Below, piece after piece: positions 56,486 to 60,008 of a DNA stretch of 64,000 nucleotides (position 1 is its first letter; every line of letters starts with the position of its first letter). The stretch comes from a virus. Made by a program: the position numbers and the translations under genes. The notes beneath the pieces were generated by a model. That model saw only the letters and a list, made by a program, of their open reading frames with translations. It had not been told where the DNA came from and searched no databases. Location: IMG/VR virus record IMGVR_UViG_3300028376_000003, positions 32,001 to 96,000 of that record; one strand, written 5' to 3'.

Positions 56486-57007
56486 ATGACACGGAATTTT
56501 AAATCAGTTAAAGAAGTACGAGATTTCAAGAAAAAAACTCTTGATATTTATGAGAAAATAGATAATGGAAGAAAATTCACAAACCACTATAAAGAATATG
56601 ATATCTTCAATATGTCTAAGCACTTGGAGATTGGACAACATTTTTTATACGAGAAATATTTATACAAAAGAAGTAAAGGAAATAGTAGTCTTATATGTTA
56701 TCCAGAAATGGGTGTGTTTTTAAATACAATACCAATAGATCAGACCTTTGAGTTGGAATGGTATGATTATAGAAGAACATGGGAATATAATATAAGTGTA
56801 ACAAATGATGATAGTGAGATGTTAATGTATGATTTTCCTAGTGAGATTAGTACTCTTATATTATGGCAAGATAGTTTATTTGTTTATGACGTTTGGGACA
56901 AAAAACCTGACTGGAAACAAATGAGAAAAGCATATGATAAAACTTGGTGGTTCCATAAAACTAAAGAAAAGATAAGACATTTAAAGATAAATTCCATATT
57001 AAGATAA
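56486..57007 (+). CDS. hypothetical protein with C-terminal RHLKINSIL motif
   Basis: TAATATATA at 56460-56468. Confidence 0.65.
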   Translation: MTRNFKSVKEVRDFKKKTLDIYEKIDNGRKFTNHYKEYDIFNMSKHLEIGQHFLYEKYLYKRSKGNSSLICYPEMGVFLNTIPIDQTFELEWYDYRRTWEYNISVTNDDSEMLMYDFPSEISTLILWQDSLFVYDVWDKKPDWKQMRKAYDKTWWFHKTKEKIRHLKINSILR

Positions 57008-57010
57008 TTG

Positions 57011-57343
57011 TTATTTAGGTAATTTCATATCACTTGTTACTTCAATCTTAAATCCAAGTCCTGTGCTTTCATCAGAACCATACTTAGTCTCAGAGTGATA
57101 TCCATTATCAGAATGAAATGTTATTGGTTTAGCACCATGCATCTTTTGCTTATCCTTTTCCTCTTTTTCTTTAAGCATTTCCTCAAATGTTAGATTATCT
57201 GATTTATTTACACTATTATCTCTTATAGTATCTTGTCTATCAGAGTAACCGTACTTTCTTAGTAGTTCCTCTGCCTCTTGTCCAGTTACTTCCCTTTCAC
57301 TTTCAACTCTTTGTCCTTCTATTTGTCTTGTAGTAGCTCTCAT
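57011..57343 (-). CDS. hypothetical protein
   Basis: TAATATATA upstream (57348-57356). Confidence 0.6.
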   Translation of the reverse strand: MRATTRQIEGQRVESEREVTGQEAEELLRKYGYSDRQDTIRDNSVNKSDNLTFEEMLKEKEEKDKQKMHGAKPITFHSDNGYHSETKYGSDESTGLGFKIEVTSDMKLPK

Positions 57344-57453
57344 ATCATATATATTAAAATAATATCTTTGTTAATTATATCTTAAAAATAGTGTGTTAAA
57401 TTAATACATTTCATATATTTGTATAATAAATATCAAAAGAGACAAAACTTTTT

Positions 57454-57462
57454 TAATATATA
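57454..57462 (+). promoter_or_regulatory. TAATATATA promoter box for tRNA operon 1
   Basis: Preceded by AAAACTTTTT; TATATTTG also at 57414. Confidence 0.6.
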
Positions 57463-57478
57463 GTATATAAACATAAAT

Positions 57479-57551
57479 CGCGGGGTAGAGCAGTAGGTAG
57501 CTCGCTAGGCTCATAACCTAGAGGTCGTTGGTTCGAGTCCAACTCCCGCTA
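57479..57551 (+). tRNA. tRNA-Met(CAT), initiator-like
   Basis: CGCGGGG/TCCCGCT acceptor with C1 mismatch, CTAGG-CTCATAA-CCTAG anticodon arm, TTCGAGT T-loop. Confidence 0.92.
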
Positions 57552-57571
57552 CAAATAAATAAATAAATAAA

Positions 57572-57655
57572 ATGAATACTTTTACTAACATAGAATATTA
57601 TTATGAAGAATCTGAACGAAAACGCTCGGCTAGTCTTTTGATGTCTATAATGTAA
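57572..57655 (+). CDS. attenuator leader peptide MNTFTNIEYYYEESERKRSASLLMSIM (Tyr/Glu control codons)
   Basis: 27-codon ORF after A-rich leader; codons 8-15 GAA TAT TAT TAT GAA GAA TCT GAA; followed by terminator and tRNA-Tyr, tRNA-Glu. Confidence 0.8.
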   Translation: MNTFTNIEYYYEESERKRSASLLMSIM

Positions 57656-57672
57656 ATTAAATTATAGTATAA

Positions 57673-57708
57673 AAAAAACCCAGTCTAGTAATATAGACTG
57701 GGTTTTTT
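57673..57708 (+). terminator. attenuator terminator upstream of tRNA-Tyr/Glu
   Basis: AAAAAACCCAGTCTA-gtaata-TAGACTGGG-TTTTTT. Confidence 0.88.
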
Positions 57709-57721
57709 GTTTTAAAAATAT

Positions 57722-57804
57722 GGGGGTAATATGGCACAGGTAGTCATGTCGGTCTGTAAAACCGATTCCGAAAGGTATTGTGGGTTCGAGTCCCACTACG
57801 CCCA
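57722..57804 (+). tRNA. tRNA-Tyr(GTA)
   Basis: TCGGT-CTGTAAA-ACCGA anticodon arm, long variable arm, GTGGG-TTCGAGT-CCCAC; one G:G mismatch in acceptor stem. Confidence 0.88.
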
Positions 57805-57814
57805 CTTAGTACAT

Positions 57815-57887
57815 GCTCCGTTCGTCTAGTGGACTAGGACCCCAGGCTTTCAACTTGGTAACGGGAGTTCAATTCTCCCACGGAGTA
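57815..57887 (+). tRNA. tRNA-Glu(TTC)
   Basis: GCTCCGT/ACGGAGT acceptor, CCAGG-CTTTCAA-CTTGG, GGGAG-TTCAATT-CTCCC. Confidence 0.92.
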
Positions 57888-57969
57888 CTAGTTTTAATAT
57901 TGTTTAAAATAGGATTATAATAATATAATGCTTATATTTGCCTATTATTTAATTTTAAAAAGCTTTTAA

Positions 57970-58134
57970 ATGGAAAAAAACACAATACAAGATTTTAAGT
58001 GTGTATATGTTTATAGAACTGGTAAAAAAATACATGAATGTGTATTTAAAGCCTACAATGTTGAGCAAGCTAAGACACATTTTTCGTTTTTTTATCCGAA
58101 AAGGATATTGAAAGAAATTGAATTACAAAAATAA
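57970..58134 (+). CDS. small hypothetical protein (54 aa, below track cutoff)
   Basis: MEKNTIQDFKCVYVY...; TATATTTG at 57933. Confidence 0.55.
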   Translation: MEKNTIQDFKCVYVYRTGKKIHECVFKAYNVEQAKTHFSFFYPKRILKEIELQK

Positions 58135-58140
58135 ATTATT

Positions 58141-58359
58141 ATGGTTTTAAAAATAGAGATAGAAGGAATTGGCGAATTCGACATAAAACATGATTTGTTA
58201 CATCGAGGTAATCGACCAAGACTGAAAACTTACCATAAAGGGATATTTAGAGAAGTATCTTTTAATAGTTTTGAAGACTATCTAAATCCTACCTATCAGA
58301 GAGGATTTGATTATGAAGGAACAGAAATACAGATTAAAATTTTAGAAAATACAGATTAA
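58141..58359 (+). CDS. small hypothetical protein
   Basis: ORF in operon with preceding small ORF. Confidence 0.6.
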   Translation: MVLKIEIEGIGEFDIKHDLLHRGNRPRLKTYHKGIFREVSFNSFEDYLNPTYQRGFDYEGTEIQIKILENTD

Positions 58360-58381
58360 TTTAAGAGGGAGAGTAAACTTT

Positions 58382-58390
58382 TAATATATA
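58382..58390 (+). promoter_or_regulatory. TAATATATA promoter box for tRNA operon 2
   Basis: AAACTTT-TAATATATA-G, same context as 57454. Confidence 0.6.
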
Positions 58391-58406
58391 GTGTAATATA
58401 ACAATT

Positions 58407-58481
58407 ATGAGAACAATTAATAACATAGCAATAATAGCGATAGGCAAAGGGAAAACTCATTGGCTGGGAATTGTTATGTAA
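58407..58481 (+). CDS. attenuator leader peptide MRTINNIAIIAIGKGKTHWLGIVM (Ile-AUA/Ala/Gly control codons)
   Basis: Codons 7-15 ATA GCA ATA ATA GCG ATA GGC AAA GGG; followed by terminator and tRNA-Ile(TAT), Gly, Gly, Ala. Confidence 0.82.
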   Translation: MRTINNIAIIAIGKGKTHWLGIVM

Positions 58482-58504
58482 TTAATTTAATTATAAATTA
58501 TCAT

Positions 58505-58533
58505 AAACCCAGTCAGAAATGACTGGGTTTTTT
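58505..58533 (+). terminator. attenuator terminator upstream of tRNA-Ile/Gly/Gly/Ala
   Basis: AAACCCAGTCA-GAAA-TGACTGGGTTT-TTT; 5' arm can alternatively pair with TGGCTGGG at 58461-58468. Confidence 0.9.
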
Positions 58534-58547
58534 ATTTTATTATAAAT

Positions 58548-58621
58548 TGGTATGTAGCTTAGATGGTAAAAGCACATGGCTTATATCCATGAGATAGTGG
58601 GTTCGATACCCATCATACCAA
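58548..58621 (+). tRNA. tRNA-Ile(TAT)
   Basis: TGGTATG/CATACCA acceptor, CATGG-CTTATAT-CCATG anticodon arm, GTGGG-TTCGATA-CCCAT. Confidence 0.88.
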
Positions 58622-58629
58622 CAAAATAA

Positions 58630-58703
58630 GCAGGTAACGCATAAGTGATGGTGCACTAGCCTTCCAAGCTAGAATAGAATCGGTTTGATCCCGATTACCT
58701 GCT
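58630..58703 (+). tRNA. tRNA-Gly(TCC), divergent copy
   Basis: GCAGGTA/TACCTGC, CTAGC-CTTCCAA-GCTAG, U73; T-loop TTTGATC is non-canonical. Confidence 0.8.
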
Positions 58704-58714
58704 CGATATAAAAT

Positions 58715-58788
58715 GCAAATGTAGCTCAATTGGCTAGAGTGTCTGATTTCCATTCAGAAAGTTGTAGGTTCGAATCCTATCATTTGCT
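58715..58788 (+). tRNA. tRNA-Gly(TCC)
   Basis: GCAAATG/CATTTGC, TCTGA-TTTCCAT-TCAGA, TTCGAAT, U73. Confidence 0.88.
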
Positions 58789-58795
58789 CATTAAT

Positions 58796-58873
58796 GGGGG
58801 ATTAGCTCAGTCTGGTCGTAAGCGATAGCTTTGCAAGCTGTGTCATACATCGGTTCAAATCCGATATCCTCCA
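58796..58873 (+). tRNA. tRNA-Ala(TGC)
   Basis: GGGGGAT/ATCCTCC with G3:U70, ATAGC-TTTGCAA-GCTGT. Confidence 0.9.
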
Positions 58874-59165
58874 CAGCTTAATTAAAAAAAACAATAATTA
58901 TAGAAGATTTGAGTGCGAGATAGATAGAGAGAGGAGTAATTACTAAATTTGCATCAGATGAATTGGAGAAGTTGTCTAAAAATCATCAGGCTAGAAAATA
59001 TCAAAGCTTCACTATAGATAGGTGAGTTGTTGATATTGTGGACATGTCACCGATTTCTAAGCTAACAAATTCAGTAGATGTGATAGTTTATGGTGGTGAT
59101 TCATTAATGGAGATTTCTTAGAAACATATTAATAATATATATATAGAGAAAATGTACATATTATT

Positions 59166-59921
59166 ATGATTATAAGATTTAGAAGTAGAGGAGAAAAAGT
59201 TAAGGATTTACAAAACTTGTTAGGACTAAAACCTGATGGTATATTTGGTCCTAACACTTTGAAAGCTTTGAAGAATTTTCAAAGAGATAATGGATTAAGC
59301 GTAGATGGTATAGTTGGTCCTAATACTTGGTCTGTTTTAGTAAAAAACGATAAGAATAGAATAAGACCAATTTACGATGTTGATCTAAACGAAGAAGATT
59401 CTGTATCTGATCCAGAGTGTATGTTCTGTGTAGAAGATATTGAGGAAACACAACCTTTGTCCCCTAGTACAAGGGAACTTATAAACCTAATAGAATCTAG
59501 TGATATTACTAGGAATATAAAAAGGCTTGTTTTCCATTGTACTGCAACATCTCAAAAAGCTACTGTATCTGCCATTGTGAATTATTGGAAGAATACACTT
59601 GGGTGGCGTTCACCAGGTTATCATATAATTGTTAGGCCAGATGGAACTTGGAATCAACTACTAGACTTTAACAGAGTCTCTAATGGTGTTCGTGGTATCA
59701 ATTCTACTACTATAAATATATCATATATTGGTGGTGTTGACCGAAATGGTAGAGCATTGGATAATAGAACTAAAAAGCAAAAGGATGTCTATGAAACCAT
59801 TTATAGAGCTTTTAAGCATAAATTACCTAGAATAACATTTCATGGACATAATGAATTTTCATCAAAAGCATGTCCATCTTTTAATGTTAAAAATTGGATA
59901 AAGTCTTTAAGAGTAATTTAA
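59166..59921 (+). CDS. endolysin: PG-binding domain + N-acetylmuramoyl-L-alanine amidase (T7 lysozyme-like)
   Basis: DGIFGPNT..FQ..GLSVDGIVGPNTW; FHCTA, PGYH, HGHNE, KACPSF. Confidence 0.9.
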   Translation: MIIRFRSRGEKVKDLQNLLGLKPDGIFGPNTLKALKNFQRDNGLSVDGIVGPNTWSVLVKNDKNRIRPIYDVDLNEEDSVSDPECMFCVEDIEETQPLSPSTRELINLIESSDITRNIKRLVFHCTATSQKATVSAIVNYWKNTLGWRSPGYHIIVRPDGTWNQLLDFNRVSNGVRGINSTTINISYIGGVDRNGRALDNRTKKQKDVYETIYRAFKHKLPRITFHGHNEFSSKACPSFNVKNWIKSLRVI

Positions 59922-59983
59922 TTAGTATATATTTGCATAGTAAGAATTCTAAAAGAAAGAAAAATTATAATATTATTTTACTA

Positions 59984-60008
59984 TATATCATGATGTTGCA
60001 TGTTTTTA
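59984..60008 (+). repeat. 25-bp dispersed intergenic direct repeat, copy 2
   Basis: Identical to 21854-21878. Confidence 0.85.

Follow-up and report, generated by a model that had tools for sequence, protein, structure and literature searches.

The closest likeness to the elements described in this study is found in the multivalent leaders of enterobacteria, i.e. those of ilvGMEDA (Ile/Leu/Val) and thr (Thr/Ile), and also in trpL, hisL, leuL and pheL. In the trp, his and leu attenuators, the stalled ribosome is established as a sensor of aminoacyl-tRNA. The phage units share with the ilv/thr leaders a short ORF (translated in the latter, presumably also in the phage) whose regulatory codons form a run, in some cases for more than one amino acid, as well as a terminator, a mutually exclusive antiterminator and an anti-antiterminator, between which the position of the ribosome would decide. 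A leader-peptide attenuator may also act on a component of the translation machinery, as in Escherichia coli, where the pheM leader attenuates pheST (phenylalanyl-tRNA synthetase) upon decoding of the cognate codon. However, pheM precedes a synthetase protein gene on a bacterial chromosome and responds to one amino acid, whereas the phage carries a set of units jointly spanning its tRNA repertoire. T-boxes, in turn, also sense tRNA status and place a terminator/antiterminator switch upstream of translation-related genes. They bind uncharged tRNA directly, by means of a conserved T-box sequence and with no need for translation; unlike in T-boxes, it is an ORF that is conserved in the phage units.

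Control by phages of their own tRNA genes is, to our knowledge, essentially undescribed, and a full-text literature search (of incomplete coverage) returned no paper or preprint on leader-peptide attenuation of tRNA genes. Cultured large phages, such as a Yersinia jumbo phage and a Serratia T4-like phage, have likewise clustered tRNA genes, but the stretches of 14 and 17 tRNAs from these two enterobacterial viruses contained no terminator-to-tRNA junction, and no tRNA in them lies behind a terminator or a codon-matched leader.

The locus analyzed here is a phage tRNA operon, the transcription of which is very probably controlled by a trp-type, ribosome-mediated attenuator. Its parts, their geometry, the match between codons and tRNAs and the covariation in relatives were all computed from the DNA. 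The anatomy is that of known leader-peptide attenuation; the differences are that tRNA genes would be under its control and that a phage carries the element. In contrast to the ilv/thr leaders, the phage element would regulate tRNA genes and not biosynthetic enzymes, and its output would replenish the molecule that is sensed. There is no similarity between these bacterial leaders and the phage units at the level of sequence or Rfam models. In Rfam searches of all four phage units (described below) only tRNA matches reached the threshold, with no match to a leader or T-box family. The only leader-type hits, both sub-threshold, were Thr_leader in the search of units 1 and 2, at chance level (23.6 bits against a gathering value of 55, on the minus strand over the tRNA-Tyr gene), and L20_leader in the search of units 3 and 4 (26.4 bits versus 58.7, also on the minus strand).

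Genomic context of the tRNA units

The source record is a single-contig virus of 141,527 bp (28.7% G+C), DNA of which is present in lake-water and salt-lake metagenomes, and its host is probably a member of the Bacteroidota. The record contains four paralogous units, each composed of a leader, a terminator and tRNA genes, which together take in all of the phage tRNAs except an initiator-like tRNA-Met. Units 1 and 2 lie within the window (the whole 64,000-nucleotide stretch analyzed, to which the coordinates below refer unless stated otherwise), 830 bp apart with unit 1 upstream, while units 3 and 4 are located outside it in the same genome. All features of units 1 and 2 given below are on the plus strand.

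Several other elements were noted around these units. Two small ORFs (57970–58134 and 58141–58359), neither with a Pfam match, are situated between the two tRNA units, and a TATATTTG motif, a Bacteroidota-type -7 box, precedes them at 57933–57940. An endolysin-like gene with PG_binding_1 and Amidase_2 domains (59166–59921) is placed just 3' of the tRNA-Ala gene of unit 2.

Architecture of unit 2

Leader ORF 2 (58407–58481) begins with ATG, comprises 24 codons and has homologous ORFs in contigs L001, L013, L057, L060, L074 and L086. Its regulatory run occupies codons 7–15 (58425–58451; I A I I A I G K G), with ATA codons at 58425, 58431, 58434 and 58440, GCA and GCG between them, then GGC, AAA and GGG, and a GGA codon further on. 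Seven of eight, or eight of nine, codons of the run specify amino acids of the downstream tRNAs. Following the run is the antiterminator strand (region 2), TGGCTGGG (58461–58468), complementary to CCCAGTCA (58508–58515) with one G.U pair and kept in homologues as G(G/A)CTG(A/G/T)G. The intrinsic terminator is a GC-rich hairpin of 11 bp (58505–58530; -16.6 kcal/mol), consisting of a 5' arm (region 3, 58505–58515), a GAAA loop (58516–58519) and a 3' arm (region 4, 58520–58530), and is followed by a T-run (58531–58540). The hairpin ends 17 nt before the first tRNA gene.

Four tRNA genes follow: tRNA-Ile(UAU) (58548–58622; ARAGORN, Rfam 67 bits), tRNA-Gly-like(UCC) (58630–58703; Rfam 44 bits and relaxed ARAGORN, with no call by default ARAGORN), tRNA-Gly(UCC) (58715–58789; ARAGORN, Rfam 70.5 bits) and tRNA-Ala(UGC) (58796–58874; ARAGORN, Rfam 50 bits). 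The first-pass annotation, made from the sequence alone, had read this stretch as a leader-matched, ribosome-mediated attenuator, a reading strongly supported by the three paralogous units, by homologous units elsewhere and by covariation. Its coordinates were all correct, the interleaving of four ATA codons with GCA/GCG ahead of GGC/GGG and a later GGA was seen as it stated, and the order Ile(UAU)-Gly-Gly-Ala was borne out, the first Gly only by Rfam and relaxed ARAGORN. It also held with regard to GGC, which under strict wobble is the sole codon of the run not assigned to the downstream tRNAs.

Predicted switching of the leader RNA

Leaders were folded up to the terminator loop, with 28 nt masked as the ribosome and pairing allowed only downstream of the mask. 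With this ribosome mask, the models behave as a trp-type switch. When no ribosome is placed on unit 2, region 1 (58415–58432) pairs with 58470–58487 to form an anti-antiterminator hairpin (-19.0 kcal/mol), and the 5' arm of the terminator stays unpaired. With the A site on codons 2–15, an 8-bp helix between 58461–58468 and 58508–58515 is the minimum-free-energy pairing (fold of about -15 kcal/mol), and with the ribosome from codon 16 on, or at the stop codon, this pairing is gone. The folding thus recovered the 8-bp antiterminator, exclusive of the GAAA-loop terminator, that the earlier annotation had proposed; the second helix that it had placed between 58474–58478 and 58502–58506 is possible, but is absent from the predicted folds, which use other inner pairs. 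The unit 2 helix is better than expected from dinucleotide shuffles of the leader (-13.6 versus -7.4 ± 1.7 kcal/mol; 17 of 2000 shuffles were as good). Its terminator is thermodynamically slightly stronger than the antiterminator fold (-16.6 versus about -15 kcal/mol), which counts against the model, and the switch would therefore depend on kinetics.

A similar pattern is predicted for all four units. With the A site on a regulatory codon, the 5' arm of the terminator is sequestered over 7–14 nt (6–11 nt in unit 3), and it is freed one to three codons past the last regulatory codon as well as at the stop codon. A hairpin between regions 1 and 2 forms without a ribosome in units 1, 2 and 4, but in unit 3 the antiterminator forms even without a ribosome, which counts against the model. 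A simple duplex between leader and arm beats all 2000 shuffles in unit 3 and is marginal in unit 4 (p = 0.06); in unit 1 it has no advantage over shuffles, so the antiterminator of this unit rests on a weak branched fold. Every computationally testable property of a leader-peptide attenuator (ORF, codons, terminator, antiterminator and, in constrained folding, dependence on ribosome position) was found in unit 2.

For the operation of this switch we infer a promoter, translation of the leader, coupling of transcription and translation, and a physiological signal. Transcription would start a few bases 3' of a promoter-like box at 58375–58390, and a ribosome would translate the 24-codon leader as RNA polymerase advances. 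Slow decoding within codons 7–15, be it at Ile(AUA), Ala(GCR) or Gly, would hold the ribosome on 58425–58451 and cover region 1, leaving 58461–58468 free to pair with 58508–58515; the terminator would then be blocked and the polymerase would enter the genes for tRNA-Ile(UAU), the two tRNA-Gly and tRNA-Ala. Fast decoding would bring the ribosome to codons 16–24 or to the stop codon, where it would cover region 2 and allow the terminator to form. If the leader were not translated, region 1 would pair with 58470–58487 and the terminator would form as well. Because a leader and a switchable terminator stand ahead of the tRNA genes, these tRNAs are probably made only when ribosomes read the respective codons slowly. 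The outcome would be negative feedback, in which the tRNA set is made when the matching decoding capacity is short.

Sister units and the initiator-like tRNA-Met

Leader ORF 1 (57572–57655; 27 codons) contains the run E-Y-Y-Y-E-E-S-E and is followed by a terminator hairpin (57673–57708; -20.8 kcal/mol), the CCCAGTC/GACTGGG core of which is shared with unit 2. Behind it are tRNA-Tyr(GUA) (57722–57805) and tRNA-Glu(UUC) (57815–57888), both found by ARAGORN and Rfam. In unit 3, codons 3–24 of the leader form a 22-codon run exclusively of N, L, T, R, V, I, M and C, and the tRNAs are Leu, Asn, Ile(GAU)-like, Arg(UCU), Val, Cys, Thr and Met. Leader 4 has the run P-Q-P-Q-V-D-I-D-Q-D-S-D, behind which are two Asp-Gln-Pro triplets of tRNAs.

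Some tRNAs of the phage are odd in structure. A tRNA-Arg(UCU) (L002:1168–1248, i.e. 102567–102647 of the phage genome; Rfam 39 bits) and an Ile(GAU)-like tRNA (L002:865–960, genome 102264–102359; relaxed ARAGORN only, but its anticodon arm is perfect) both have a D-arm that is reduced or missing and 21–26 nt in the variable region; the codons that they would read (AGA and ATT) are present in leader 3. A further tRNA of 87 nt with a CAU anticodon (L002:1594–1679, genome 102993–103079; Rfam 39.6 bits) has a long variable arm, which is unusual for Met, and Met, Ile2 or another identity are candidates.

The initiator-like tRNA-Met(CAU) (57479–57552; ARAGORN), with a 1:72 mismatch flagged in the Rfam alignment, is the only tRNA of the phage without a leader. 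It is located 5' of leader 1 and therefore lies outside attenuator control. Initiator tRNA-Met is not used by the elongating ribosome. Homologues of this tRNA-Met gene are also placed directly behind the promoter-like box, without a leader, in six to seven related phages. In relatives, two terminator-like hairpins (L042:877–941, minus strand, and L149:13163–13193) immediately precede tRNA-Met(CAU) genes, and no leader ORF separates them from these genes.

Related units and the nature of the signal

Related units were collected from viral contigs scanned for the terminator motif and from the tRNA regions of five large records (135–508 kb, with 23–68 tRNAs each). A unit was defined by a T-run and a stem of 10 bp or more, at most 45 nt from a tRNA; of the ATG-started ORFs with 15 or more codons, the one with the nearest upstream stop codon was assigned as the leader. 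Applied throughout, this rule gave 35 non-identical units in this phage and in related contigs, most of them from records of 130–640 kb. In the phage collection, among the matches listed, extended DNA matches came only from uncultured records of 635–642 kb; the other matches listed (including cultured phages) lay over tRNA genes and covered no more than 11% of the query.

The content of the leaders follows the tRNAs. In relatives, Q-runs precede Gln tRNAs, leaders with S and R(CGN) precede Ser and Arg(ACG) tRNAs, a leader H-K-H-F-S-K-S-S-K-W-F stands ahead of His, Lys, Phe and Trp tRNAs, and a leader Y-Y-K-Q-Y-Y-Y-K ahead of Lys and Tyr tRNAs. Fused Tyr/Glu/Ile/Gly/Ala operons carry fused leaders mixing all five amino acids.

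It was proposed in the first-pass annotation that the use of ATA, and not ATT or ATC, in leader 2 points to sensing of an isoacceptor (lysidine tRNA-Ile2). This argument is weak and does not follow from leader 2. Since ATA is the majority Ile codon of the genome (2115 of 3327, 64%), four ATA out of four has p = 0.16. Moreover, the downstream tRNA has the anticodon UAU, not lysidine-CAU, so no lysidine is needed and TilS would be relevant only to the host's own AUA decoder. Across the units, ATA prevails 20:10 in the leaders of Ile(UAU) operons and ATT/ATC 8:2 in those of Ile(GAU) operons (Fisher p = 0.02, for units that are not independent), and Arg codons are split by anticodon, with CGN accompanying Arg(ACG/GCG) and AGA accompanying Arg(UCU) (p of about 0.02). 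The codon-level p values, about 0.02 for whole leaders and 0.095 for the best windows only, are too weak to claim isoacceptor specificity. The partition of ATA with UAU and ATT with GAU is suggestive only, and codon-level sensing is plausible but not established.

The same partition bears on the question of what the attenuator evolved to sense. It may be argued that the switch works as described but that its signal is amino-acid supply, i.e. charging, with induction of the tRNAs reporting starvation and not a shortage of tRNA. A ribosome stalled for want of aminoacyl-tRNA cannot distinguish low tRNA abundance from poor charging, and the trp, his and leu attenuators share the geometry of the phage units. 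Nevertheless, we consider this improbable, as extra tRNA gives no relief of amino-acid starvation, and hence no feedback, and the pairing of CGN with ACG/GCG, AGA with UCU, ATA with UAU and ATT with GAU fits sensing at the level of tRNA, not of the amino acid.

Covariation of leader and terminator

Attenuation by a translating ribosome, the preferred reading, implies competition between the terminator and a strand in the leader, and this strand was compared across the 35 units. Duplexes of leaders with their own 5' arms had on average -11.2 kcal/mol against -7.6 kcal/mol with arms of other cores, a difference equalled in 0 of 20000 permutations, although the tests overstate independence because the units come from related phages. 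Homologous leaders of the unit 3 type are combined with four or more distinct terminator stems, and for each stem codons 25–30 of the leader hold a copy that matches it. A natural variant of leader 2, present in contigs of two metagenome runs, has a deletion of 1 nt at 58452, which rewrites the last 8 residues, leaves the regulatory run intact and shifts the stop codon by only 4 nt. Such a pattern is expected if the RNA and the position of the stop codon matter and the peptide does not.

These data also speak to the idea that the leader is translated but termination is unregulated, the hairpin mainly helping to process or stabilize the tRNA precursor, or the product being the peptide itself. 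The hairpins of the four units stand 7–17 nt before the first tRNA, in the zone of processing enzymes; however, they are canonical terminators with T-runs, and the leader copy of the terminator 3' arm, which covaries with the stem, is needed only by the competition model. As for the peptide, N-terminal residues (M-K/R/N-N/T-...-N) are conserved between leader types, but the natural frameshift swaps the C-terminal third and the composition varies with the tRNA set. Both versions of this idea are therefore quite unlikely.

Reading frames and spacing

An ATG-started open frame of 17–43 codons was present in 35 of 35 units, despite the AT-rich and stop-rich DNA. The antiterminator strand begins a median of 14 nt past the last regulatory codon (within 8–19 nt in 25 of 35 units, a band picked after the data were seen), and the distance from the stop codon to the start of the terminator is 19–34 nt. 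A mechanism in the manner of a T-box, by which the RNA would sense tRNA directly through codon-anticodon pairing and with no translation, might account for cognate codons beside a terminator/antiterminator pair. We give it very little credence in view of the open frames, of cognate codons that are in frame (as many as 22, covering 8 amino acids) and of switch boundaries that fit the footprint of a ribosome. In addition, no T-box (RF00230) was found at E up to 1 in the region 56500–60000 or at E up to 0.1 in L002 and L003.

Match between leader codons and tRNA sets

The attenuator reading also rests on codon content, which was evaluated with a scan statistic, using amino-acid frequencies from the long ORFs of the phage and a reference set of 469 small ATG-started ORFs (20–45 aa, six frames). 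Each of the four leaders ranked as the single best of the 469 for its own tRNA set, with a lead of 100-fold or more, and random peptides equalled leaders 1, 2, 3 and 4 in 4, 1, 0 and 2 cases per 20000, respectively. The scan p of leader 2 against the set {I, A, G} was 4e-6. The leader-by-operon matrix had values of 5.7, 5.3, 8.1 and 6.0 on the diagonal and of at most 3.3 off it. Over the 35 units, the mean score was 5.14 for the own set versus 1.27 for other sets, which was reached in 0 of 20000 label permutations (again with units of shared descent), and units whose own set was not ranked top were mostly beaten by a near-identical set. Although small ORFs are common anywhere and ATA, GCA and GGN are not rare in this genome, a chance ORF beside an ordinary terminator ending the upstream genes (57970–58359) is already contradicted by the comparative data, i.e. 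these rankings and permutations and the conservation of homologues in other phages.

The match is imperfect at the codon level, as GGC in leader 2, and GGC/GGT and CCT/CCC in relatives, lie outside what the downstream anticodons read under strict wobble. Repeated Ser codons were observed in the His/Lys/Phe/Trp leaders (L057, L074 and L146), yet no Ser tRNA in the operon stretch examined, and repeated Ala codons in some Ile/Gly leaders (L013, L057, L060 and L086), yet no Ala tRNA in the stretch examined. Either these tRNAs escaped detection or are located beyond the stretch, or sensing by the leaders is broader than the supply from the operon.

Possible role of the units

As a tentative proposal, which we regard as possible but doubtful, the units may together be a regulon, encoded by the phage, in which decoding capacity is sensed at codon resolution and each operon is switched on only if its own codons are read slowly. 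Host tRNAs would thereby be replaced exactly upon their failure, e.g. when the host degrades or cleaves tRNA as an anti-phage defence, or when the codon demand of the phage exceeds the supply of the host. Unit 2 would be the AUA/GCR/GGR sensor, feeding back on tRNA-Ile(UAU), tRNA-Gly(UCC) and tRNA-Ala(UGC).

If the attenuation model is true, leader-peptide attenuation, the textbook control of amino-acid biosynthesis, has been re-used for non-coding RNA genes in a self-correcting circuit, in which the speed of the ribosome on a codon sets the transcription of the tRNA reading that codon. It would explain how large phages manage 20–70 tRNA genes in amino-acid blocks, would imply tight coupling of transcription and translation in the host and would provide a testable link to tRNA-targeting anti-phage defences. 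The units would also constitute a natural set of codon-specific sensors, with one or more for most amino acids.

Promoter-like boxes

The box AAACTTTTAATATATA (58375–58390), 16 nt 5' of the ATG of leader 2, is a putative promoter. The same box occurs in unit 1 (57445–57462), 16 nt 5' of the initiator-like tRNA-Met, and in relatives it stands directly before initiator-like tRNA-Met genes and before leaders. The box, written AAACTTTT..AATATATA, ends 16 nt before the leader 2 ATG (58375–58406) and before the 5' end of tRNA-Met (57445–57478), while the distance from box to ATG is only 6–8 nt in units 3 and 4 and in many relatives. Should the box be a -10-like element, the mRNAs of these leaders may be leaderless or almost so. 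In addition, many relatives have a Bacteroidota-type TAnnTTTG box about 55 nt upstream, which suggests two promoters.
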